Assembly: GCF_003334255.1 (NCBI RefSeq)
Contig: NZ_QOWU01000085.1
Origin: Escherichia coli
GTDB lineage: Bacteria; Pseudomonadota; Gammaproteobacteria; Enterobacterales; Enterobacteriaceae
Reading direction: 5' to 3' (one strand)
DNA: 10,225 nt
A model generated the notes under the pieces. It had not been told where the DNA came from. It ran no database searches and worked only from the letters and a program-made list of their open reading frames with translations. This document shows, piece by piece, positions 1 through 10,225 of the stretch (position 1 is the first letter of the stretch; each line of letters begins with the position of its first letter). The position numbers and the translations under genes were made by a program.

Positions 1-148
1 GAAAAACGAGTATTTTTAGTCATCCTGTTTACCTCTTTCTCAGGGAGTTTAGTCTCCAGGATTTCCGGGGCGGTTCAGACCAACTAAGGCCATATGCGTT
101 TCCACGCATACCTTTCAACTAGCTATTCACTATTGGAAATCATAAGAA

Positions 149-445
149 ATGACACAAACAAGTTACAGCAAACTATCCCAGCGTGACGTTGATCGCGCAG
201 AAACAGATTTACTCATCAACCTGTCAGCTCTGACGCAAAGGGGACTGGCAAAGATGATTGGCTGCCATGAATCGAAGGTCAGTCGTACCGACTGGCGATA
301 CATCGCGGCGATTTTATGCGCGTTCCAGATGGCATCTGATATCAGTCCGATCAGCCGGGCTTTCCAGCATGCCATTAACGTTCATGCAAATAAAAAACGT
401 CCGGTTGGGGCCGGACGTTCTGAGCAAATCCTGATGAATATCTGA
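149..445 (+). CDS. cII: CII-like transcriptional activator (lambda cII family)
   Basis: 98 aa, about the length of lambda CII. The C-terminus ANKKRPVGAGRSEQILMNI closely parallels what I recall of lambda CII (TNKKRPAATERSEQIQMEF), and the central SKVSRTDW segment parallels CII's DNA-binding region (SQISRWKRDW). It sits directly upstream of the replication genes, as in lambda. Confidence 0.8.
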   Translation: MTQTSYSKLSQRDVDRAETDLLINLSALTQRGLAKMIGCHESKVSRTDWRYIAAILCAFQMASDISPISRAFQHAINVHANKKRPVGAGRSEQILMNI

Positions 446-508
446 TATTCAGGCAGGGCATGGAGCAATACACGGGAATAATTCTGCCACATCTGGAAGA
501 ATTTCGCC

Positions 509-578
509 AGCAACAACACCAACCGCAGCAGCCTGAAGCCGATTGGGTTAACCCGGGAGATACCGGGACCGTCTGCGG
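509..578. repeat. Diverged partial copy of an internal segment of the downstream replication gene (matches 1258..1350)
   Basis: By-eye alignment: agcaacaacaccaaccgcagcagcctgaagccgatt...gggttaacccgggagataccgggaccgtctgcgg versus 1258..1350. The downstream copy has an extra 23 nt bounded by a 10-bp direct repeat gaagccgatt. The upstream copy lies in a 41-codon ORF (460..585). Confidence 0.6.
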
Positions 579-608
579 TATGGAGTAAATCTTGTATGCG
601 AGGGGACT

Positions 609-1691
609 ATGCGTAATTACGCAACAATTTCACCTCAGTTCTGGTTAGGCGATACAGGGCGAAAACTAAGGAAGTCTGGTCCGGAATGTATGGTAGTGGC
701 GTTGTATATGATGACCTCGCCTCATTCCAATATGCTGGGCCTTTATTACCTGCCTGTTTTGTACATTGCTCACGAAACCGGACTTGCTCCTGAAGGGGCT
801 TCTAAGGGGCTTCAAATGGCTTGCGAGGCTGGTTTTTGCAGCTATGACCATGATTCTGAGGTTGTATGGGTGCATGAAATGGCAGCATGGCAGGTTGGTG
901 AATCGCTGAAACCTGGCGATAACCGTTGTGCTGGGGTAAGAAATGAATATTCCGCGTTGCTGGAAAATCCTTTTTTATCATCCTTTTATGATAGATATAA
1001 GGATGATTTCCACCTGGATGTCAGACGTGAATCATGTCGGAAAATTGAAGCCCCTTCAGAGCCCCTTTCAAGCCAAGAACAGGAACAGGAACAGGAACAG
1101 GAAAGGGATAAAACCCTTCTGGTCCATGGCGAAAAAATCGCCACGGACCCACAGGGGGATTTTTGTCCTGTTCTGACTGAACGTCCAGGACCAGATGGCA
1201 CGACACCGGAAGCAGATTCCGGGCGTTGTGTGCAGCAGGTGCTGATCGTCGAACCGGAGCAACAACGCCAACCGCAGCAGCCTGAAGCCGATTCCGCGAT
1301 GAGCGGGAAGCCGATTGGGTTAACCCGGGCGATGCCGGGACCGTCTGCGGGACGAGTTGATTATCCTGACGTGTTCGAACGGGTCTGGCGTGAATATCCG
1401 CATCGGGCAGGGTCAAACCCGAAGAAATCCGCGTTCAATGCCTGGAGGGCCAGATTACGCGAAGGGGTGTCACCGGATGTCGTGCTGGATGGCGTGAGGC
1501 GTTACGCAAGATACCTGGAGGCTACCGGGAAAGCGGGAACTGAATTTGTTCAGCAGGCATCGACGTTTTTTGGCCCGAACAGGAATTTCGAAAATCCGTG
1601 GTCGCTGCCGAAGGCTGGCGCAGTCAGCCTGCGTTGCGTGAATCACATTTCTGAACCGGACACCGAAATTCCGCCGGGTTTCAGGGGGTAA
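609..1691 (+). CDS. Phage replication initiation protein (O-like functional analogue; resembles the so-called replication protein 15 type of lambdoid prophages)
   Basis: 360 aa with SD GAGGGG 4-5 nt before the ATG. It follows cII and is immediately followed by a DnaC-like loader gene. It contains an internal AT-rich segment with inverted and tandem repeats (origin-like) and an acidic (QE)n linker between two domains. The family assignment is from memory only. Confidence 0.6.
   Translation: MRNYATISPQFWLGDTGRKLRKSGPECMVVALYMMTSPHSNMLGLYYLPVLYIAHETGLAPEGASKGLQMACEAGFCSYDHDSEVVWVHEMAAWQVGESLKPGDNRCAGVRNEYSALLENPFLSSFYDRYKDDFHLDVRRESCRKIEAPSEPLSSQEQEQEQEQERDKTLLVHGEKIATDPQGDFCPVLTERPGPDGTTPEADSGRCVQQVLIVEPEQQRQPQQPEADSAMSGKPIGLTRAMPGPSAGRVDYPDVFERVWREYPHRAGSNPKKSAFNAWRARLREGVSPDVVLDGVRRYARYLEATGKAGTEFVQQASTFFGPNRNFENPWSLPKAGAVSLRCVNHISEPDTEIPPGFRG
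977..1007. repeat. Perfect 9-bp inverted repeat (atcatcctt / aaggatgat) with 13-nt AT-rich loop, inside the replication gene
   Basis: Read directly: atcatcctt-ttatgatagatat-aaggatgat, in an AT-rich stretch (about 960..1010) flanked by short direct repeats tcctttt(tt)at. Confidence 0.7.
1077..1106. repeat. Hexanucleotide tandem repeat (GAACAG)x4 plus one degenerate unit, in frame within the replication gene
   Basis: gaacag gaacag gaacag gaacag gaaagg, translated as the QEQEQEQE linker of the 360-aa protein. Confidence 0.9.
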
Positions 1692-1697
1692 TCAGCC

Positions 1698-2438
1698 ATG
1701 AAAAACATTTCGACAGGAGGGATTCTTGAACGGGTGCGCCGTCTGGCACCACCGCACGTGGCAGCACCGTTCCGGACGACCGACGAATGGCGGGAATGGC
1801 AACTGGCTGAGGGCCGGAAGCGCAGCGAGGAAGTTAACCGCCAGAATCACCAGACGCGGGTTGAAAAAATCCTGAATCGTTCGGGCATCCAGCCGCTTCA
1901 CAGGAAGTGCTCATTCGGGAACTACCGGGTGCAGAACGACGGTCAGCGCCATGCTCTGAGCCAGGCGAAATCCATTGTCGATGAATTGATGACCGGTTAT
2001 ACAAACTTCGTGTTCAGCGGGAATCCGGGAACCGGAAAAAATCATCTGGCGGCGGCTGTGGGTAATCGTCTGCTGAAGGCCGGTAAATCCGTGATAGTGG
2101 TCACCGTGGCGGATGTGATGAGCGCGTTACATGCCAGCTATGACGACGGACTGTCAGGGGAAAAATTTTTGCGTGAACTGTGCGAAGTGGACCTCCTGGT
2201 TCTTGACGAAATTGGCATCCAGCGTGAGACGAAAAACGAGCAGGTGGTACTGCACCAGATTGTTGACCGCCGGACGGCATCACTGCGCAGTGTCGGGATG
2301 CTGACAAACCTGAATCATGCCGCAATGAGCACGCTTCTTGGTGAGAGGATTATGGACCGGATGACCATGAACGGTGGTCGTTGGGTGAATTTTAACTGGG
2401 AGAGCTGGCGGTCAAACGTTGGACGTCAGGGTATGTGA
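1698..2438 (+). CDS. DnaC-like replicative helicase loader (AAA+ ATPase, IstB/DnaC family)
   Basis: 246 aa with Walker A GNPGTGKNHLAAA and Walker B LLVLDEIG. The start is 7 nt after the stop of the initiator gene, with SD AGGGGG upstream. This is the classic position of the lambda P analogue in phi80/Rac-type replication modules. Confidence 0.85.
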   Translation: MKNISTGGILERVRRLAPPHVAAPFRTTDEWREWQLAEGRKRSEEVNRQNHQTRVEKILNRSGIQPLHRKCSFGNYRVQNDGQRHALSQAKSIVDELMTGYTNFVFSGNPGTGKNHLAAAVGNRLLKAGKSVIVVTVADVMSALHASYDDGLSGEKFLRELCEVDLLVLDEIGIQRETKNEQVVLHQIVDRRTASLRSVGMLTNLNHAAMSTLLGERIMDRMTMNGGRWVNFNWESWRSNVGRQGM

Positions 2439-2463
2439 GAATTTTTGACGAGGTAAATTTTCG

Positions 2464-3234
2464 ATGGAAACCGTATTGCATGCACTGAAAGCGATGGGAA
2501 AAGCCAATTCTGTTGAACTGGCGGCGCGGCTTGATATCAGCCGTGAAGAAGTTCTCAACGAACTGTGGGAGCTCAAAAAAAATGGCGTTGTTGATAAAAC
2601 GGGTCACACCTGGTTTCTGGCTGTCGAAGGTGAAGCCGGGGTAACCGAAGAGCGGCCAGTAAAATCTGAAACACAGGATATGCTGACCGAAGAGGTCGCT
2701 CCAAAAGTTAGCGCTGACATGATGATTGAGTTTATCTCTCAGGAGGGGGCTAAAACCTGTGAAGAAATAGCGGGTAAGTTCGGAGTTACCACTCGCAAGG
2801 TTGCTTCCACGCTGGCGGTGGTAACCGCAACGGGGCGGCTGGCACGCGTTAATCAGAACGGTAAATTTCGTTACTGCATGCCGGGGGGTAATTTACCAGC
2901 AGATCCGAAAACCGCGCCGGTAACGGAAAATGATGGTAAGGCCTTTCCTCAGCCAGCAGGTGCTGCGTTACCAGTCCGGGAAGCCGCAACACAGGAAGAA
3001 ATTAAAACAGAAACTGTGGCGGACATTGTGCAGCCGTTGCCATCGTTTACCGAAACGCAAGCAGATGAGCTGATTTTTCCGTCCCTTCGCAGGGCAAACC
3101 TGGCGCTGCGCAGGGCGAAAAGTGATGTTCAGAAGTGGGAGCGAGTCTGCGCCGCGCTGCGGGAGCTGAATAAACACCGGGATATTTTCAGTTCGATTGC
3201 TGATATTCCGGTTCATTCACCGACAACAAAGTGA
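2464..3234 (+). CDS. Hypothetical phage protein with two winged-helix-like N-terminal modules
   Basis: 256 aa, ATG with GAGG 10 nt upstream. Two similar HTH-like segments (about residues 1-55 and 85-135) are followed by a low-complexity linker and a basic helical C-terminus. No family recognised. Confidence 0.6.
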   Translation: METVLHALKAMGKANSVELAARLDISREEVLNELWELKKNGVVDKTGHTWFLAVEGEAGVTEERPVKSETQDMLTEEVAPKVSADMMIEFISQEGAKTCEEIAGKFGVTTRKVASTLAVVTATGRLARVNQNGKFRYCMPGGNLPADPKTAPVTENDGKAFPQPAGAALPVREAATQEEIKTETVADIVQPLPSFTETQADELIFPSLRRANLALRRAKSDVQKWERVCAALRELNKHRDIFSSIADIPVHSPTTK

Positions 3235-3249
3235 TCTCCGGAGGTGCTT

Positions 3250-3681
3250 ATGACAAGAGCATTTACACCAGAAGAGCGGGAAAAAATTAAGGGGCTGATC
3301 GTGGAGTTCGTACGCCTTAACGGACGAGGCACGATTCGGCAGTTATCGGATGAAATTGGTGTCAGTCATGCGTCTGTCGGTCGTTTATGCATGGAGCTGG
3401 CCGCCAGTGGTGATGTTTACAATTCCGGTTACGGAGTATTCCCGTCTGAACAGGCTCGTAAGGACTGGCAAAATGCCCGCAAAAAACTCTCAAGGGCAAA
3501 GTCGAAGAAACCGGTTGTCGTTGATCCAGACCTTATCCGGGCATTACCAGATGGGGAAATACGGCGCTACGACAGACGCTACAACACAATTTGTCGCGAG
3601 TGCCGTAACAGCGAAACGATGCAGCGTGTGCTGGCATTCTGGCGAGGGAGTGCAGAGGGATTGATGTTCTCCCCGTCGTGA
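3250..3681 (+). CDS. Hypothetical HTH-containing phage protein
   Basis: 143 aa from ATG 3250 with SD GGAGG 5 nt upstream (the track ORF starts 6 nt earlier at a GTG). The N-terminus IRQLSDEIGVSHASVGRLCMEL is HTH-like; the C-terminus has a CxxC pair. Confidence 0.55.
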   Translation: MTRAFTPEEREKIKGLIVEFVRLNGRGTIRQLSDEIGVSHASVGRLCMELAASGDVYNSGYGVFPSEQARKDWQNARKKLSRAKSKKPVVVDPDLIRALPDGEIRRYDRRYNTICRECRNSETMQRVLAFWRGSAEGLMFSPS

Positions 3682-3690
3682 ATGACGGGG
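3671..3690. terminator. Hairpin between convergent genes (ccccgtc-gtgaat-gacgggg), overlapping the stop codon at 3679..3681
   Basis: 7-bp perfect stem with 6-nt loop, read directly. There is no clear U-tract on either strand, so its terminator function is uncertain. Confidence 0.35.
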
Positions 3691-3713
3691 GCTTACGTGT
3701 TCAGAAAAGTGAT

Positions 3714-4388
3714 TCATATAGAGGCTGAATCTGATCTTTTTTGTTCACGTCTGGCTTCCACCATTGCAGGCAGAGTGAAGGCGTAGACTAAAAACATTTC
3801 GGTAAAACTCAGGATCTGGCTTGCCTCAATTGGTGTGAAAACTTCATCTGTATGAACTGCTTTATTGGCATCAATTCGTACAATATGAGCCCATTCCTTC
3901 ATCTGTTCAGTGATCAGGCCTTTTTTGTAAATCATCTGAATACGTTGCGACAGCGATTCTTTTCCTGCTTCATCGCCGAGCAGTTTTTTCGTGGAGATAT
4001 CGAGGACTCTGCGACAAAGAATAACCACTGTGTCGTACCGCCTCCTCTGTAAATCCTCTTTTGCCTCAACAAAAGTACGGTCTGCAACCGGGGGCGTATA
4101 TTCTGGTGCGGTAATTTTTTTGACCACAGGATAGATCTTGCGGAAACGGTACTGGCTATTTCCTGAAATCAGAATATCGAGGTCTTTTTTCTGGCTTTCC
4201 GCCATGGGACCGTGATAGTGGTCTGATGGGATTTCAACAATAGCAACACCTCCTCGATGACAACTTCTGCATACAAAAGCGACGTTAAAAAAAGGTGTTT
4301 TTTCAATTTGTTTTTCGGCAAATGCCTCAATAACAGCTCGCTCTTTTAAACAGTGCGGGCATGTGATATCAAAGGAGACTAAACCCAT
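3714..4388 (-). CDS. Zinc-ribbon / DUF4145-like protein, candidate single-gene defence (abortive-infection-type) factor
   Basis: 225 aa from the ATG at 4388, with SD GAGGAA 5 nt upstream on the minus strand; the track ORF extends to 4460 without any SD. The N-terminus has CPHC...CRSC (4-Cys ribbon). The C-terminal ~100 aa (RRVLDISTKKLLGDEAG...IVRIDANKAVHTDEVFTPIEASQILSFTEMFLVYAF) matches my recollection of the DUF4145 consensus (R..GN.aaH followed by EA...L). It is on the opposite strand to flanking phage genes and in visibly lower-GC sequence. Confidence 0.7.
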   Translation of the reverse strand: MGLVSFDITCPHCLKERAVIEAFAEKQIEKTPFFNVAFVCRSCHRGGVAIVEIPSDHYHGPMAESQKKDLDILISGNSQYRFRKIYPVVKKITAPEYTPPVADRTFVEAKEDLQRRRYDTVVILCRRVLDISTKKLLGDEAGKESLSQRIQMIYKKGLITEQMKEWAHIVRIDANKAVHTDEVFTPIEASQILSFTEMFLVYAFTLPAMVEARREQKRSDSASI

Positions 4389-4632
4389 GGATATTCCTCG
4401 CGAAATTAAAGAAATTAACGAAATCATTGAGGTTACTGATCGCCCCGAGTTTACCCTCATGCGTCGTTATGAAACAGGAACCGACGAACAAAAATACATC
4501 ATGGTTGCAGCATTGGCTGTGATGGCGATAGAAAGGGAGCGAAGGGAAAAGGACGTAATGGTTATTCCTGAGAGAAATGATTCACCGGATTTGAGATGGC
4601 AGGAGCCGGAGTGGGATGTGGTAATCCGGTGA
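4387..4632 (+). CDS. Small acidic hypothetical protein (81 aa), divergent from the DUF4145-like gene
   Basis: ATG at 4387 with SD AGGAG 9 nt upstream, ending at a GC hairpin shared with the convergent antitoxin gene. Its start codon overlaps the minus-strand start inside the palindrome CCATGG. No family recognised; it could be spurious. Confidence 0.35.
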   Translation: MDIPREIKEINEIIEVTDRPEFTLMRRYETGTDEQKYIMVAALAVMAIERERREKDVMVIPERNDSPDLRWQEPEWDVVIR

Positions 4633-4653
4633 TTGATATTTCTCTGGGGTAAA

Positions 4654-4674
4654 GCGCCGCCAGAATGACGGCGC
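4654..4674. terminator. GC-rich hairpin (gcgccg-ccagaatga-cggcgc) between convergent genes
   Basis: 6-bp GC stem read directly. On the minus strand it is followed by TTTACCCC, so it may terminate the toxin-antitoxin transcript; the U-tract is weak. Confidence 0.3.
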
Positions 4675-4686
4675 GGTAGTGGAGAG

Positions 4687-4995
4687 TTAAACGAAGCGGA
4701 TCTGGAGTTTTTTCCCTGTAGCACGGGCGAATTTTTTCAGTGTGGCAAATGATGGGCCGCTTGTACCTGATGCAAGATTGCTTTCCATTCTGGTTATCGC
4801 AGTCGCTTTTGTTCCCATACGTTCAGCAACTTCAGCCTGGGTTAAGCCAGCTTCTTTTCGTGCTGCCAGCATTTCATCAAGTAGTGCGAATTCATCGGCG
4901 ATGGCGTCGTATTCTGCTTTTACTGCGGGGTTAGACAACATTTTTTCTACCATATCATCGTGTGTCATGGTAGGTGGGGTACGTTTACCAGTCAT
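4687..4995 (-). CDS. HTH (XRE-like) antitoxin of a type II toxin-antitoxin pair
   Basis: 102 aa with a strong SD AAGGAGG 6 nt upstream on the minus strand. The HTH GLTQAEVAERMGTKATAITRMES is preceded by a helical N-terminal region. Its start overlaps the 3' end of the upstream toxin gene by 11 nt. Confidence 0.8.
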   Translation of the reverse strand: MTGKRTPPTMTHDDMVEKMLSNPAVKAEYDAIADEFALLDEMLAARKEAGLTQAEVAERMGTKATAITRMESNLASGTSGPSFATLKKFARATGKKLQIRFV

Positions 4996-5326
4996 GCTTA
5001 ACCTCCTTCATTCTGGTTTCAGCTTTTCTAAGCTCGGCAGGTGGAGTTTTTTGCGTTTTCTTTACAAAGCTATGCAACATAATGATTCGCTTTCCTTTTA
5101 GCGTGCAGTAAAAAACACGCCCTATGCCTTCCGAGCCCTTAAGGCGGATTTCAAACAAACCGTCGCCAAATGCCTCTGTATGCGGGGAACCAAGATTAGC
5201 TCCGTAAATACGCATTTTCTCCGTGTACCGAATGTACCGGGCTTGTAAGGTCTCAGGAAGAGAAAGGATCTCAGCTTCAACCTCGTCACTGTAGTATTCG
5301 ATAATGTAGTTCATGAGAGTAAACAT
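4985..5326 (-). CDS. RelE/ParE-superfamily toxin (Gp49/HigB-like) of a type II toxin-antitoxin pair
   Basis: 113 aa from the ATG at 5326. The C-terminal half GRVFYCTLKGKRIIMLHSFVKKTQKTPPAELRKAETRMKEV fits the Gp49/HigB-type pattern. The toxin-first gene order and 11-nt overlap with the antitoxin are typical of HigBA-type modules. The GTG-initiated 42-codon extension in the track ORF is not expected for this family. Confidence 0.8.
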   Translation of the reverse strand: MFTLMNYIIEYYSDEVEAEILSLPETLQARYIRYTEKMRIYGANLGSPHTEAFGDGLFEIRLKGSEGIGRVFYCTLKGKRIIMLHSFVKKTQKTPPAELRKAETRMKEVKHDW

Positions 5327-5338
5327 AACAAATTTGTT
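5327..5338. promoter_or_regulatory. Perfect 12-bp palindrome AACAAATTTGTT immediately upstream of the toxin start; candidate operator
   Basis: Read directly. It lies between a -10-like TATATA (minus strand) and the toxin ATG. Type II antitoxins typically autoregulate through palindromic operators. Confidence 0.4.
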
Positions 5339-5356
5339 ATATACATTCAAGGTATG

Positions 5357-5386
5357 TTGACGACAACACATATCCGGGATTATATT
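5357..5386 (+). promoter_or_regulatory. Sigma70-like promoter (TTGACG-N17-TTATAT) on the + strand, back-to-back with the minus-strand toxin promoter
   Basis: ttgacg at 5357..5362 and ttatat/tatatt at 5380..5386, read directly. On the minus strand TTGTCG-N17-TATATA sits just upstream of the toxin ATG. Confidence 0.4.
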
Positions 5387-5448
5387 CTTCGCACGCCAGC
5401 AAAATCTGGCGTCGGGATTAGGAACCCCGGATAGAAACCGCGACAGAG

Positions 5449-5470
5449 ACACGCCGCGAGCGTGTTTTTT
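5449..5470 (+). terminator. Intrinsic terminator (acacgc-cgcga-gcgtgt followed by TTTTT)
   Basis: 6-bp stem, 5-nt loop and T5 tract, read directly. It lies about 60-80 nt downstream of the + strand promoter, which would delimit a short transcript. Confidence 0.55.
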
Positions 5471-5633
5471 ATTGTCGTATGCACACGCACATCTGAATTA
5501 TGGTGGGGCGTATAGGGGAGCTGAAAAGCTCGCCGGTTGGTTTCCCGGTAGTTCCTAACCCTGTACGTCTCGCCACCCGATGATTAGGAACCTGACGGTG
5601 GTGATAGTTTAGAAACCACTCGAGGGCGTCATT

Positions 5634-6305
5634 ATGACAACTCAAGTTTCTGTTGAAACACTCTCCACGATTACTTACAAGCAGATCCCCGTTATCACTA
5701 CCGAACTTTTGGCGCACCTTTACGGCACAGAAGCTATTCGTATTCGCCAGAATCACCACGAAAACAAAGGTCGTTTCATTGAGGAAAAACACTTCTTCAA
5801 ACTTGAAGGTGAAACTTTACGTGAGTTCAAGCACAGAGTAGCTTTTAACTACTCTGTGAAAATTGCCCGTAACGTTCGCTCCCTCATCCTATGGACAGAA
5901 CGCGGCGCAGCCCGTCATGCAAAAATGCTCGAAACCGATCGGGCGTGGGAAGTGTTCGAAAAACTGGAAGACTGCTATTTCAGCCAGGGAAAAACAACAC
6001 AAACCGAACAGCAGTCGCAGATTCAGCCACAATTCACAGCCGAGGAAATCATCCTCCTTTGCTACATGCAACTCTGGATGGAAAAAGCCCAGGACCTTAA
6101 CAAGCAGCTGTACCCCATAATGAAAGAGCTGAACTCCTCATACACGAACAAGCTGTATGACATTGCGTTTGAGACTATCTACATGGTGACGAAGAACAGA
6201 GACGCGCTACTAAGGGAGGTAACACGTCTCGACATGTCAAGTTCCGTTATCCAGCGGGCCATGCCAATGCTGAAAAGCCTGCGGGCAAGACAATTTGAAT
6301 TCTGA
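5634..6305 (+). CDS. Roi-like DNA-binding protein (ORF6N-type N-terminal domain, antirepressor-like)
   Basis: 223 aa with SD GAGGG 7 nt upstream. The N-terminal region (TELLAHLYGTEAIRIRQNHHENKGRFIEEKHFFKLEGE...LILWTERGAARHAKMLETDRAWEVFEKL) resembles the ORF6N/Roi-type domain as I recall it. It sits just before ninB, as roi-like genes do in HK022-type nin regions. Confidence 0.55.
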   Translation: MTTQVSVETLSTITYKQIPVITTELLAHLYGTEAIRIRQNHHENKGRFIEEKHFFKLEGETLREFKHRVAFNYSVKIARNVRSLILWTERGAARHAKMLETDRAWEVFEKLEDCYFSQGKTTQTEQQSQIQPQFTAEEIILLCYMQLWMEKAQDLNKQLYPIMKELNSSYTNKLYDIAFETIYMVTKNRDALLREVTRLDMSSSVIQRAMPMLKSLRARQFEF

Positions 6306-6311
6306 AACTAA

Positions 6312-6333
6312 AGGAGCTTCGGCTCCTTTTTTG
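6312..6333 (+). terminator. Intrinsic terminator (aggagc-ttcg-gctcct followed by TTTTTTG)
   Basis: Perfect 6-bp stem, tetraloop and T6 tract, beginning 7 nt after the roi-like stop codon. This is the position of the nin-region terminators (tR2-like) in lambda. Confidence 0.7.
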
Positions 6334-6359
6334 TTGGGAAAATCCAGTGAGAGGGAATA

Positions 6360-6770
6360 ATGAACCAGACTATCTTCCTCCGAAGTAAGCAGCAGCAACA
6401 ATTCGCCATTAACGCCATCCTTGCAACAACTCTCGATAAAGACAAACCCGTTACGATCCGCATCACCGATTACAAGCGGAATCTCGATCAAAATGCCAAA
6501 TTTCACGCGATGGTCGCTGATATCTCCCGACAGGTTCAGTGGTGCGGCAGATGGCTAAAACCAGAACAGTGGAAAGTTTTGTTAATCAGCGGTCATGCCG
6601 TGGCGACAAAACAGGAAGCTGATGTTTTGCCAGGTCTTGAAGGTGAATACGTCAATATCCGCGAAAGCAGTGCGCAAATGAGCGTGAAGCGTATGGCAAG
6701 CCTGATTGAGTACACAACATCCTGGGCCGTGGATCAGGGTGTCAGATTTACCGACAGGAGGTACGAATGA
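6360..6770 (+). CDS. ninB: NinB (Orf family recombination mediator)
   Basis: 136 aa. The motifs [32 protein letters not shown] parallel lambda NinB (SLDQNRKLWACLGDVSRQVEWHGRWLDAESWK) as I remember it. SD GAGGG upstream. Confidence 0.8.
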
Positions 6771-6958
6771 GACGACAGCGACGAAGCATCACCGATATCG
6801 TCTGTGAAAACTGCAATTACCTTCCAACCAAACGCTCCCGAAATAAACCCAGGCCAGTCCCCAAAGAATCTGATGTTAAAACCTTCAACTATACGGCTCA
6901 CCTGTGGGATATCCGGTGGCTAAGGCGTCGAGCAAGATTTAATTGTCACTCCGGATAG
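6767..6958 (+). CDS. ninE: NinE-like small protein
   Basis: 63 aa, start overlapping the ninB stop (ATGA), so translationally coupled. It is basic with a CxxC pair. The position between ninB and the ybcO-like gene matches DLP12/lambda-type nin order. Assignment is by position and size plus weak recollection. Confidence 0.5.
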
Positions 6959-6981
6959 CCTACTGCATGAGGAATAAGATG

Positions 6982-7272
6982 ATGACAAACCTACGCAAAG
7001 AAGCGCGCGGCAGAGAATGCCAGGTACGGATTTATGGCGTATGCAATGGCAACCCTGAAACTACAGTTCTGGCGCATTACCGAATGGCTGGAATTTGCGG
7101 AACGGGAACAAAGCCAGATGATCTGTTGGCTGCATGGGCCTGTAGTGACTGCCATAATGAAATCGATCGCCGTACTCGCATTCTCGACAACAACGACGCC
7201 AGACTTTACCACCTGGAAGGCGTGATCAGGACGCTGGCGATATTGCTGAAGGAGGGGAAGATTAAGTCATGA
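6982..7272 (+). CDS. YbcO-like protein (DUF1364-type putative nuclease)
   Basis: 96 aa from the ATG at 6982, with GAGGAA 6 nt upstream; the track ORF starts earlier at 6943. RKEARGRECQVRIYGVCNGNPETTVLAHYR and the Cys/His cluster resemble the E. coli DLP12 YbcO as I recall it. It sits immediately upstream of rusA, as in DLP12. Confidence 0.6.
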   Translation: MTNLRKEARGRECQVRIYGVCNGNPETTVLAHYRMAGICGTGTKPDDLLAAWACSDCHNEIDRRTRILDNNDARLYHLEGVIRTLAILLKEGKIKS

Positions 7273-7631
7273 ATGAATATGAGTTTGTGCTTCCCTGGCC
7301 GCCGACGGTGAATACCTACTGGCGAAGACGGGGAAGCCAGTACTACATCAGCGATAAAGGCCAGAAATACCGAAAAGACGTACAGCAAATCATCCGGCAA
7401 CTCAGATTAGACATTTTCACTAAATCACGACTTCGCATCACAATTATTGCTGAACCACCAGATTCCCGCCGTCGCGACCTCGATAACATCCTGAAAGGTT
7501 TACTCGACTCTCTTATCCACGCCGGATTTGCGGAAGACGACGTGCAATTCGATGACATTCGCGTAATTCGCGGCGTGAAAGTGCCTGGCGGTAGAGTGGG
7601 GATAAAAATCACCGAACTGGAGAACATATGA
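7269..7631 (+). CDS. rusA: RusA Holliday-junction resolvase
   Basis: 120 aa. The N-terminus LPWPP and the RRRDLDN motif match RusA, which is also 120 aa in E. coli. Its start overlaps the upstream stop (ATGA). Confidence 0.85.
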   Translation: MNEYEFVLPWPPTVNTYWRRRGSQYYISDKGQKYRKDVQQIIRQLRLDIFTKSRLRITIIAEPPDSRRRDLDNILKGLLDSLIHAGFAEDDVQFDDIRVIRGVKVPGGRVGIKITELENI

Positions 7632-7828
7632 ACGCCACAATTCAAACAATACCGGAATTGCTTATCCAGGCACGAGGCAATATGACTGAAGTTTCACGAA
7701 AACTGAACTGTAATCGTGCTACGGTCAGAAAATATGTCGGTGATAAAGAAGGCAAACGGCACGCCGTCGTCAACGGTGTCCTTATGGTTCATCGTGGATG
7801 GGATAAGGGGAAAGCTACTGATGCGTGA
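7628..7828 (+). CDS. ninH: NinH-like small DNA-binding protein
   Basis: 66 aa. TIPELLIQARGNMTEVSRKLNCNRATVRKYVGDKEGKRHAVVNGVLMVHRGW parallels lambda NinH as I recall it (Fis-like HTH). Its start overlaps the rusA stop (ATGA). Confidence 0.65.
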   Translation: MNATIQTIPELLIQARGNMTEVSRKLNCNRATVRKYVGDKEGKRHAVVNGVLMVHRGWDKGKATDA

Positions 7829-8063
7829 TATTCAGCAGGTGCCTGAACGCATGGCTTTATTCAGGTCGTCTGGAAAAGCGCATGAGCAGCGTAATAGCGG
7901 AGTTCATGGCGAAGAGTATATGAACAGATTATTCGAATGCTATATGAGACTGAAGCACGGAGATCGCTATGACCTGACACGTGATGCTGACGGTTTCTAC
8001 TGCCGTGAAGTTGTGAAACGAATGTTTGAAGTGTGGTGTCATTGTAAAGGATGGGGGCTGTGA
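7821..8063 (+). CDS. Hypothetical small protein (80 aa) between ninH and the Q-like gene
   Basis: The ATG at 7821 overlaps the ninH stop (ATGCGTGA), with GGGGA upstream. The track ORF begins at 7716 but would then overlap ninH by about 110 nt. Cys/His-rich C-terminus (CREVVKRMFEVWCHCKGW). No family recognised. Confidence 0.5.
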   Translation: MRDIQQVPERMALFRSSGKAHEQRNSGVHGEEYMNRLFECYMRLKHGDRYDLTRDADGFYCREVVKRMFEVWCHCKGWGL

Positions 8064-8677
8064 TGCGGCTAACCCCAGTATTCGGCATGGTTAACTTTAT
8101 TAATGATGCTCATTTCCGCCGCATATGGAGGCATCCGAAGAAAATCATTAACTCTCGTCAGAAAGCATGGGTTCACTACATGCTACAGGTATGGGGAAAT
8201 GTTAACGCTGGTGATGATTCTCCTTGTGGTGCAATTAACGTTATTGGGCGACTGATGATTCGCAGTCAGTGGAGCGATGACAAAGCTAAGCAGATTGAGT
8301 CTGTTGTCATGCGTCTGTATGAAGAAGACGGACTACGTGGAGATGAACTCCATCAGAAAGCCCGAGAACTGGTCATCCCTCAGTCATCGGCAGGTAATAT
8401 CATTGCTCTCGCCAAAGAATCCGATGATGCTGCTTTCGTTGAACGTGTGATGGTTGAGACCTTTCATCGTGAAAGCCCTGTCCGTGATGTAGCTATTAGG
8501 CGATATTGCAATCGCGACAGCACGCAAGATATCGCCAGGATGATTTCTCAGATAACAGGAGTTGATATTCAGTATTGCCGGAGGCGGGTCGTGTGGTGCG
8601 AGAGGGTCCTTGATTCAGAAATGTTTTATGCAATGAAGCGAGAATTGGAGAAAGAACTTCTAGTGATTGCTGGATGA
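8063..8677 (+). CDS. Putative late-gene regulator (Q antiterminator-like by position), family uncertain
   Basis: 204 aa from the ATG at 8063, overlapping the upstream stop (TGATG) with a G-rich SD. It is the last gene before a promoter-plus-terminator region and the late-gene start, where Q lies in lambdoid phages. The sequence does not resemble lambda Q as I recall it, so the call is positional. Confidence 0.4.
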   Translation: MRLTPVFGMVNFINDAHFRRIWRHPKKIINSRQKAWVHYMLQVWGNVNAGDDSPCGAINVIGRLMIRSQWSDDKAKQIESVVMRLYEEDGLRGDELHQKARELVIPQSSAGNIIALAKESDDAAFVERVMVETFHRESPVRDVAIRRYCNRDSTQDIARMISQITGVDIQYCRRRVVWCERVLDSEMFYAMKRELEKELLVIAG

Positions 8678-8701
8678 TGCAAAATATTTTTTGTAAATGC
8701 G

Positions 8702-8730
8702 TTGCTTTCGAGAAATGAAAGTAGTATGTT
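8702..8730 (+). promoter_or_regulatory. Candidate late promoter (pR'-like): TTGCTT-N17-TATGTT
   Basis: Hexamers read directly, about 25 nt downstream of the Q-like stop. A terminator lies roughly 110-130 nt further downstream, as in the lambda pR'-tR' arrangement. Confidence 0.3.
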
Positions 8731-8837
8731 TTGTGTATGCTCGGAGCAAAAGCGCACTGAGAAGCGAAAGAGAAATCCTGATTTACCTCGGTCGTCGATA
8801 ATATTTAGGATCGGCATACTGGCTAGATTAGGTAAAG

Positions 8838-8864
8838 GCCTCGGCAGAAATGTCGGGGCTTTTT
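8838..8864 (+). terminator. Intrinsic terminator (tR'-like): gcctcggc-agaaat-gtcggggc followed by TTTTT
   Basis: 8-bp stem including two G-U pairs, 6-nt loop and T5 tract, read directly. Confidence 0.55.
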
Positions 8865-8996
8865 GTTTGCACAACAGGTAAGAGCATTGAACCCGCAGAC
8901 CTCGTGGAATTGGTGAAAGGTGTGCGCAGTGCTCTTATCGTTGTGGTGAAGCTCAATGGCGAGCTAGCAGACAGGCGACTGTGAAAATACTAGTCA

Positions 8997-9068
8997 TGTA
9001 GCGGATCGCCGCGCGTATTGTAATCGGCAGCGCACCGATGGGAGCTGGTTCGATTCCGGCCGCCACAA
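8997..9068 (+). tRNA. tRNA-like element, possibly a degenerate tRNA or tRNA remnant (anticodon-position triplet GCG)
   Basis: It has a canonical T-arm (gctgg-TTCGATT-ccggc), a 7-nt acceptor 3' strand cgccaca, and an anticodon-like arm (atcgg-cagcgca-ccgat). But the acceptor 5' strand tgtagcg gives one A-C mismatch, there is no convincing D-arm, position 33 is A, position 37 is C, and no CCA is encoded. A second acceptor/D-arm-like fragment lies at 8942..8964. Confidence 0.3.
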
Positions 9069-9383
9069 TCCAAACTGAGCCGTAGCCTCTGGGTGTCCTG
9101 AATTCATCAGTGATAGTTACGCTGCGGCCTTCTACATACGATTTTTGTGAAAAGCGGGTGGCAAGAGGCTGCGAAATTTTTAAATACCTCACAATTCCAC
9201 AGCTTGATGATTGTCTGGCTGCCGGAGAATTTGTTAAAAATTGCATCGCGTGGTGAATCCCCCTCAGCGGCGGGGCATCTGGCAAAGTGTATGATCCAGC
9301 GAACATGCAAATTCAGTAGCCAGGCTGAATTTACCGGGAGGCACCTGGCACCATGCGACAGACAGAAATTAGGCTATACTTCA

Positions 9384-9406
9384 GCCCCTCTCCGGAGGGG
9401 CTTTTC
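9384..9406 (+). terminator. Intrinsic terminator of unit 1 (gcccctc-tccg-gaggggc followed by TTTTC)
   Basis: Perfect 7-bp GC-rich stem, tccg tetraloop and T tract, read directly. Confidence 0.75.
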
Positions 9407-9596
9407 TGTGCAGGATGTGTCACAGTTTCCTGAATTCTGAGTACTGTCCTGTTACTCAGGGTGCTATATTTTCTGACGTGATGAAAGTCTGCCGGAAGGC
9501 GGAACGTATCGGAAATGACCCAGTAGAGAAAACGTTGACTCAGATACCGATGCTGAGTTACCGGGAAACCGGCATCACATGACCGCTATCCTTCCA

Positions 9597-9619
9597 GGCT
9601 CGCTCCGGCGGGCCTTTTT
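9597..9619 (+). terminator. Intrinsic terminator of unit 2 (ggctcgc-tccg-gcgggcc followed by TTTTT)
   Basis: 7-bp stem with one G-U pair, the same tccg loop as the other two units, and a T5 tract. Confidence 0.7.
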
Positions 9620-9866
9620 ACTGCAGAAAACAGTTTTCCCGTAAAATGCCACGTTACTCACAATTCAGGCTGGCGATTATTGTCTGGCCAGCGGGAAGTT
9701 TGTTAAAAAAATATGGCATGGTGAATCCCCCTGTGCGGAGGGGCATATCAGCGACAGGTGTTTGGTCACACCCCTTATCCTTTCTGGTGCGGGTTCAGGT
9801 GCTGATACTGAACTCACCGGGAGGCACCCTGCACCATGCATGAACGGTACATAGCGCTACTCTCCA

Positions 9867-9890
9867 GCCCCTCTCCGGAGGGGCTTTCTT
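9867..9890 (+). terminator. Intrinsic terminator of unit 3 (gcccctc-tccg-gaggggc followed by TTTCTT)
   Basis: Stem and loop identical to the unit 1 terminator, read directly. Confidence 0.75.
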
Positions 9891-9897
9891 GTTGGAT

Positions 9898-9926
9898 AAA
9901 AAAAAGCCCGCGCCGGGAAGCGCGGG
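9898..9926 (-). terminator. Minus-strand intrinsic terminator (cccgcgc-cgggaa-gcgcggg preceded by an A8 run on the + strand)
   Basis: 7-bp GC stem read directly. On the minus strand the hairpin is followed by a T8 tract. With the unit 3 terminator it forms a back-to-back bidirectional stop. Confidence 0.6.
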
Positions 9927-10127
9927 TGGCAAGGAATAAACAACAAAACGTGAAGTGATCAATTTTCAGCTGGCGAATAATACCTGATAGTAATCACTCT
10001 GCGCAACTGTATGGTCTTTTTCGTATTGCGGGCTGTAGTCATCCTCCTGTTTCTGAACCCTTGTCCATGACTGACGTCAGCCCGCACCTTATCTTGATTG
10101 CATACACTATCCCTGCCGGGAGGAATA

Positions 10128-10225
10128 ATGGCATTTAAACACTATGACGTGGTCAGGGCATCATCGCCGTCAGACCTCGCAGGAAAACTGACGCAAAAAC
10201 TGAAGGAAGGCTGGCAACCCTATGG
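10128..10225 (+). CDS. 5' end of a phage gene running off the window (hypothetical; possibly the small conserved protein often found upstream of lambdoid lysis genes)
   Basis: ATG at 10128 with SD GGGAGGA 6 nt upstream. The reading frame MAFKHYDVVRASSPSDLAGKLTQKLKEGWQPY stays open to the window end. The family suggestion is a vague recollection only. Confidence 0.5.
   Translation, partial: MAFKHYDVVRASSPSDLAGKLTQKLKEGWQPY

Follow-up and report, generated by a model that had tools for sequence, protein, structure and literature searches.

The repeat unit described here, a 70-nt segment lying between the cII-family gene and the replication initiator gene of a lambdoid prophage, is probably recombination debris that behaves as a variable-number tandem repeat (VNTR) rather than a working gene or control site. 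The unit was analyzed in a 10,225-nt stretch of Escherichia coli DNA (referred to here as the window), where it is present once upstream of the initiator gene and once inside that gene. In E. coli and Shigella prophages related to that of the window, the upstream unit belongs to a tandem array of variable copy number. The window represents the one-unit allele of this array, and the single static scar envisaged in the earlier note is an incomplete description of the locus. The two hallmarks of a VNTR, head-to-tail units of high identity and variable copy number, were found in the relatives; the window itself holds one upstream unit.

The left end of the window corresponds to the early-right region of a lambdoid prophage (Table 1). 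Among phage records, the closest relatives are PhiR5_2, phiSTEC1589-Stx1c, POCJ13, and 75/02 Stx; in RefSeq, POCJ13 and 75/02 Stx are assigned to Diegovirus, Sepvirinae. In E. coli G1/2, a prophage (locus L131) is 99.85% identical to window positions 75-10225. By this identity, the window from ~3250 to 10225 equals L131 12962-19937, for which the RefSeq annotation of G1/2 gives DUF977, DUF4145, a RelE/ParE toxin with an HTH antitoxin, ORF6N, ninB, ninE, rusA, and ninH. The short spacer downstream of the unit is invariant in an alignment of five relatives.

TABLE 1 Features of the window from the cII-family gene to the DUF1627/YdaW-like gene
Feature	Position	Strand	Basis or remark
cII-family activator gene, 98 aa	149..445	+	phrog_191, E 1.9e-33
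Intrinsic terminator, hairpin and T-run, within the 3' end of cII	394..421	-	Terminator scan
Lineage-specific spacer, left of the repeat unit	446..508	no strand	461-492 resembles a lambda-type cII-O junction
Small ORF, 42 codons	460..588 (stop included)	+	ORF list; phrog_2751; RefSeq WP_000438872.1
Upstream repeat unit, single, 90-nt type without the 23-nt segment	509..578	+	Repeat search, alignment, shuffles
Short spacer with initiator ribosome-binding site GAGGGG (600-605)	579..608	+	Read from the sequence
Replication initiator gene, 360 aa	609..1691	+	phrog_1701, E 2.6e-151
Internal (source) copy of the unit, in linker-coding DNA	1258..1350	+	Repeat search, alignment
DnaC-like loader gene	1698-2438		
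DUF1627/YdaW-like gene	2464-3234		

Alignment with MAFFT confirmed the duplication that the earlier note had reported: the upstream copy (70 nt) agrees with the internal copy (93 nt) at 67/70 positions, and the alignment contains one 23-nt gap, located in the upstream copy. A repeat search recovered the same pair as a left block (509-544 and 1258-1293, 35/36 identical) and a right block (530-578 and 1302-1350, 45/49 identical). As previously noticed, the extra 23 nt are flanked by the 10-mer GAAGCCGATT, which occupies 1284-1293 and 1307-1316 in the internal copy and is present singly, at 535-544, in the upstream copy. With 96% identity between the two, the upstream copy is not the decayed sequence it had been taken for, and the internal copy is identifiable as the source sequence of the array. 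Nor is this source the 3' region of the initiator gene: it covers codons ~217 to 247 of 360, in the mid-gene linker between the N- and C-terminal modules. For the 23-nt difference, the suggestion of a slipped event holds, and the event can be specified as a deletion between the two 10-mers. The 113-nt upstream units of two relatives (loci L010 and L136) retain the 23-nt segment, and its absence from the upstream copy of the window is therefore the derived state.

The junction was present in 81 of 5,426 complete E. coli genomes (~1.5%). The majority of the 81 carry the two-unit form (2 x 90 nt), O104:H4 outbreak strains included, and a handful carry the one-unit form. The four closest phages likewise have two upstream units 90 nt apart in addition to the internal copy; the window is exactly 90 nt shorter, and the small ORF spans 219 nt (72 aa) in these phages versus 129 nt in the window. 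Alignment against the two-unit form showed that the window unit combines the left flank of its unit 1 with the right end of its unit 2. In E. coli 23CRST047 (L010), there are three 113-nt units, each with the 23-nt segment (Tandem Repeats Finder: period 113, 2.7 copies, 98% matches). The protein clusters of the small ORF, and the contigs that encode them, supplied additional alleles: in L136 a 113-nt unit is followed by a 90-nt unit, and a 102-aa ORF implies a three-unit 90-nt allele, with an inferred spacer of ~343 nt. Spacer lengths between cII and the initiator gene that were read directly, all from prophages at least 95% identical to the window, were 163, 237, 253, 276, and 410 nt. The array is kept across lineages ~4.5% apart and in plaque-forming or inducible phages, and no zero-unit allele was seen among the alleles examined. 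At least three initiator haplotypes carry the one-unit allele, a pattern that suggests recurrent loss of units, although the direction of change is not certain.

A shorter tandem repeat is nested between the large units. This 16-nt sub-repeat, ATGTGCAGTCACACCA, is absent from the window and was located at 1981-2012 in L001 and at 2302-2334 and 2415-2447 in L010; depending on the allele, it is present in one, two, or more copies. In L139, which has two large units, the sub-repeat occurs only once and a 76-aa ORF extends into the initiator start; in the allele with an 88-aa ORF, there are additional copies. Several of the frame changes between ORF alleles result from these differences in sub-repeat copy number.

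Upstream units that bear the 23-nt segment also agree with their own internal copy at an A/T variant (T in both for L010, A in both for L136). Gene conversion and selection for matching copies account equally well for this agreement. Concerted evolution, seen as GATGCC in all four copies of L010, was considered as a sign of function and set aside, as gene conversion explains it equally well. Four loci from IMG/VR (L043, L060, L067, and L078) have an internal copy of the GATGCC type together with 90-nt upstream units that read GAAGCC; they are uninformative on this point because the slipped deletion can itself produce GAAGCC.

Separated by 749-772 bp, the upstream and internal copies form direct repeats on either side of the N-terminal half of the initiator gene. 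Exchange between them was observed in E. coli SW071619 (L007, 2709-2779), which has a hybrid unit consisting of the upstream left half and the internal right half, with the crossover located within GGGTTAACCCGGG. The N-terminal half of the initiator is lost in this strain, and RefSeq annotates the remainder as a pseudogene. The hybrid allele shows that the two copies are recombinationally active direct repeats; given their position, recombination between them can delete the N-terminal half and disable prophage replication. The natural 772-bp deletion in L007, found likewise in SW07163, also removed the candidate replication origin described below. The SW071619 prophage would be replication-defective after this deletion, with the DnaC-like and downstream genes intact.

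The distribution of the unit follows the modular structure of the initiator gene, which comprises a lineage-specific N-terminal module, a linker, and a C-terminal module that is shared with other initiator types from ~1210 onward. For instance, a gene of the Tritos type matches the initiator at 82% DNA identity beginning at window position 1210, 48 nt before the internal copy. A Pfam search of the initiator gave no match even at an E value of ≤10. The last 25 residues (336-360; window 1614-1691) weakly resemble the C-terminal tail of E. coli DnaT (NCBIfam, E 0.009; PDB entry 2ru8, E 0.0085), and this resemblance probably lies behind the annotation "primosomal protein I" in some phage records.

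Scanning IMG/VR with a 20-nt core of the unit retrieved at least 120 loci. Among the matches listed, the internal copy occurs in initiators of at least three N-terminal types: MRNYATISPQ (the window type), MANAWLRLWHDM (Tritos), and MSLIKAFQ.../MRDYAKVSP. In a sensitive blastn search with the 93-nt unit, upstream copies were found only with the MRNYATISPQ type, again among the matches listed, and at least 99 loci with other N-terminal types or truncated genes have the internal copy alone. The MRDYAKVSP type, a diverged homologue of the N-terminal module of the window, has no upstream copy and lies in an entirely different upstream context.

Within the C-terminal module, the left half of the unit (1268-1311), which bears the 10-mers, is the best-conserved DNA across initiator types (90-97%). 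In the Tritos type, each of the four 10-mers encodes the same peptide motif, [PKR]-[EK]-A-D-[SR], and the conservation of 1268-1311 is therefore explicable at the protein level. In the linker, a compensated frameshift (a 1-nt deletion followed by a 1-nt insertion, spanning ~50 nt) separates window positions 1294-1345 from L005 (Tritos) 2585-2635. While the DNA of these stretches is ~75% identical, the encoded peptide reads AMSGKPIGLTRAMPGPSA in the window type versus AIQREADRVVPENTGQPV in the Tritos and MRDY types. The linker peptide thus tolerates complete replacement and is under low constraint.

The earlier note had interpreted the feature as a scar of mosaic recombination. That part of the interpretation was borne out at the boundary between cII and the spacer, even though the array is not a single static scar. 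Approximately 200 phage records match the window cII gene at ~80% DNA identity, and their matches end at 429-445. The spacer at 446-508 had no match in any other phage group or record; together with the N-terminal module, it was found only in the Diegovirus-like group. Within the spacer, positions 461-492 align with the cII-O junction of the lambda-like phage ev017 (24/32 identical), in a syntenic position directly after the cII stop codon. This is the best local alignment in the 3.3-kb locus, with a score only ~2.4 standard deviations above shuffles. The ev017-like stretch covers the 5' end of oop and the ribosome-binding site and start codon of O, with ATG changed to CTG at 485-487. It is likely, though not proven, that 461-492 is a vestige of a lambda-type cII-O junction; read in this way, the sequence supports the junction as the scar at which a lambda-type O gene would have been replaced.

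Left of the spacer, in the minus-strand region 388-468, a strong terminator (hairpin at 394-421, with a T-run) is homologous to the lambda oop terminator. Alignment to lambda 38539-38739 gave the conserved sequence AAAAAACG.CCGG...CGTTCTGA.CAAATCC. An oop-like antisense RNA is predicted to start near 465, which would place its 5' end under the first codons of the small ORF and make it overlap the left edge of the feature. A leftward promoter for this RNA would be expected ~77 nt upstream of the terminator end. The position equivalent to the lambda oop -10 element reads CAGAAT, and a scan of 1-1800 for consensus sigma-70 promoters found none, either in the unit or for the oop-like RNA. At a permissive threshold, Rfam returned chance-level matches only; the best near this site was AgvB at 392-453 on the minus strand (E 0.59, 20.7 bits versus a gathering score of 56).

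The initiator gene contains a likely candidate for the replication origin of the module, at ~790-1067. Repeats with an 11-nt period form two clusters in inverted orientation, AAGGGGCTTC twice at 790-815 and GAAGCCCCTT twice at 1045-1067. Between the clusters lies a 65-75% AT stretch (940-1000) with a small inverted repeat (977-989/995-1007). Similar clusters, AAGCCCCTT, lie ~245 nt apart in L039, a diverged homologue of the MRDYAKVSP type. No duplicate of this candidate origin is found upstream.

Further repeats in the initiator gene are also prone to slippage and variable in copy number between relatives. E. coli G1/2 (L131 10750-10785) and L108 have the 11-nt repeat AGCCCCTTCAG in three copies. 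In G1/2 this 11-nt insertion is the sole indel relative to the window in an otherwise 99.85%-identical prophage, and its initiator is annotated as frameshifted, consistent with the insertion. Similarly, a run of GAACAG/GAACAA hexamers at 1074-1103 encodes EQEQEQ... and differs in copy number among relatives; the stretch compared ranges from 46 to 69 nt, which fits initiator variants of 358, 360, and 362 aa.

Alternatives to the debris reading were weighed. We consider it unlikely that the upstream unit or units serve as a cis-acting DNA element for replication or for expression of the initiator, with copy number tuning initiation. Such an element might, for example, supply additional sites to a factor whose targets include the linker DNA inside the gene, comparable to extra origin sequences that titrate an initiator. 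Several observations would fit this proposal. GAAGCCNNTT occurs 6 times in the window versus 0.43 expected, always within 535-1316; no DNA of the C-terminal module is better conserved than the unit half that bears the 10-mers; and one 10-mer is conserved in the window lineage despite a different reading frame. The agreement of upstream and internal copies at the A/T variant in L010 and L136 points the same way, and the lack of an observed zero-unit allele may reflect a need for one unit or more.

However, the GAAGCCGAT 10-mers are common to initiators with unrelated N-terminal DNA-binding modules, whose own iterons differ (GTCACG in Tritos), so they are not type-specific initiator sites. The peptide motif encoded by the Tritos 10-mers supplies a protein-level reason for their conservation, the candidate origin lies elsewhere, and the 99 or more loci with other initiator types do without an upstream copy. 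In addition, copy number, length, and sequence of the unit all vary freely, and no promoter-like site was found in the scan of 1-1800. AT content is 33-40% across the unit and its flanks, the sole AT-rich stretch being the one in the candidate origin.

A structured single-stranded DNA or RNA element was rejected, as folding of the unit as DNA on both strands (z -1.8 to +0.1) and of 500-640 as RNA (z -1.9) gave no significant result. The unit does not qualify as a set of origin iterons, since it is common to at least three N-terminal types and adjoins no AT-rich region. The cis-acting copy that the earlier note offered as an alternative therefore gained no support from the fold, promoter, iteron, or AT tests.

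A broader proposal is that the array is retained for the linker motif that it shares with the initiator, acting either as DNA sites (the GAAGCCGATT stretch) or as a micro-protein that competes with the linker of the initiator for a partner; a related reading treats the direct repeats as a built-in means of cassette excision. We regard this as less probable still. If it were true, the number of units would tune replication initiation or initiator translation, so that the array would work as a copy-number rheostat ahead of that gene. Under the related reading, direct repeats around the origin-specificity half would excise that cassette and thereby domesticate the prophage.

The micro-protein deserves separate treatment, as the small ORF is annotated by RefSeq and belongs to phrog_2751. 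In this proposal, the ORF would encode a functional product with one to three QPQQPEAD motifs, which may act as a mimic or competitor of the initiator or as an upstream ORF translationally coupled to it. We judge this very improbable. The ATG of the ORF is preceded by AGGCAGGG, the part encoding QPQQPEAD is in the frame of the initiator, and the 90-nt units preserve the frame to give products of 42, 72, and 102 aa. Coupling would be possible in the frameshifted alleles, whose ORFs end 4-8 nt past the initiator ATG. Against this, the C-termini are wholly different between alleles. Across the family, the ORF measures 42, 46, 51, 58, 62, 72, 76, 88, or 102 aa, with frameshifted and unrelated C-termini, and in L010 it stops inside the first unit, with no gene called by RefSeq. 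The start of the ORF overlies DNA that aligns with the noncoding lambda cII-O spacer. The family, represented by 10 clusters from 5.8 billion proteins, is confined to E. coli and Shigella prophages (all named sources being E. coli), and NCBIfam gave no match to the ORF.

Comparison of the window with L010 also indicates a lack of constraint at the protein level. Over the first 28 codons of the ORF, 5 codons differ, with 0 synonymous and 5 nonsynonymous changes. The corresponding synonymous-to-nonsynonymous ratios are 14:4 for cII and 8:4 for the first 600 nt of the initiator gene (22:8 combined). The difference between 0:5 and 22:8 has a hypergeometric P value of ~0.004, or 0.013 when the DnaC-like gene (3:7) is added, both values resting on few sites. 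The earlier note had described the ORF as 41 codons at 460..585 in a different frame and had asked whether it is conserved. It has 42 codons when read to its stop, and its frame differs from that of the initiator only after the 23-nt gap; over the first 36 nt of the unit, the two share one frame (QQxQPQQPEAD). It is not conserved as a protein, as its length and frame change with the array alleles. The 42-codon ORF is probably a fortuitous by-product of spacer and unit DNA and not a gene.

Finally, the likelihood that the similarity reflects chance or CAG/CAA low complexity is negligible: CAA/CAG-rich sequence accounts for the left 20 nt of the unit, but the right half, GGGTTAACCCGGGAGATACCGGGACCGTCTG, is neither CAG/CAA-rich nor of low complexity and is 42/44 identical between copies, each half occurs exactly twice in the window (pattern search with ≤3 mismatches) and in 0/200 dinucleotide-preserving shuffles of it, and relatives carry these units in tandem arrays. 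The outcome that the earlier note had named as refuting it, similarity confined to low-complexity CAG/CAA-rich sequence, was therefore not obtained.

For the preferred reading, in which the upstream unit is debris evolving as a VNTR, we propose the following order of events. The MRNYATISPQ... initiator module would have taken the place of a lambda-type O gene immediately after cII. At this junction, a ~93-nt piece of the inter-domain linker DNA of the initiator may have been duplicated in front of the gene and then amplified head to tail with a 113-nt period. Slippage between the two GAAGCCGATT 10-mers would have removed 23 nt, giving the 90-nt period. Units would now be gained and lost by unequal crossing-over or slippage, with occasional exchange with the internal copy, and the window would represent the minimal allele, with one unit of the 90-nt type.

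Read in this manner, the feature can leave the list of candidate regulatory or coding elements, a clean negative result, and the annotated 42- to 102-aa "hypothetical protein" (phrog_2751, WP_000438872.1 and relatives) probably corresponds to no gene. The array serves as a hypervariable marker in a prophage family to which the Stx phages POCJ13 and 75/02 Stx and the prophages of O104:H4 outbreak strains belong. Recombination between the direct repeats is a simple way for such prophages to lose replication competence, as in SW071619. Full-text searches of the literature found no description of the cII-initiator repeat, and iterons and repeats go unmentioned in a study of Stx-phage replication types (PMC8044961), whose coverage does not extend to this module. 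The phenomenon is an ordinary one that appears to be undescribed for this phage group. In more general terms, the locus illustrates how a lambdoid module swap may leave debris that then evolves by slippage.

Three known systems invite comparison. The modular theory of lambdoid phages is said to go back to Susskind and Botstein, and mosaic junctions of these phages were reportedly described by Juhala et al. in 2000 and, for HK620, by Clark et al. in 2001. Short remnants are left at such junctions when illegitimate or homologous recombination takes place at the borders of genes or domains. The feature resembles them in lying exactly where cII homology ends and a different replication module begins, next to a spacer with a probable lambda-type cII-O remnant; the initiator is itself a two-module mosaic, with its joint near 1210. 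Unlike those remnants, the one described here duplicates the linker of the incoming module rather than the displaced gene, and it has been amplified into a tandem array of variable copy number.

The array shares with bacterial and prophage VNTRs (minisatellites) its head-to-tail units of 90 or 113 nt with 98% matches, its one to three copies among near-identical prophages, its nested 16-nt sub-repeat, and the apparent recurrent loss of units across haplotypes. It differs from them in that a dispersed paralogue of the unit lies in an essential phage gene, at a distance of 750 bp, so that the array acts as a direct repeat able to delete half of the initiator gene.

The third system is the lambda origin, in which iterons and an AT-rich region lie in the linker part of gene O. 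The source copy of the unit similarly occupies linker-coding DNA in mid-gene, as does ori-lambda according to the lambda annotation. Extra oop-ori DNA carried on plasmids is reported to inhibit lambda replication (PMC3349717), and the second, partial copy of the unit near oop recalls such extra origin DNA. Unlike the lambda origin, however, the unit is without iteron properties, and the likely origin of this module, at ~790-1067, is not duplicated upstream.
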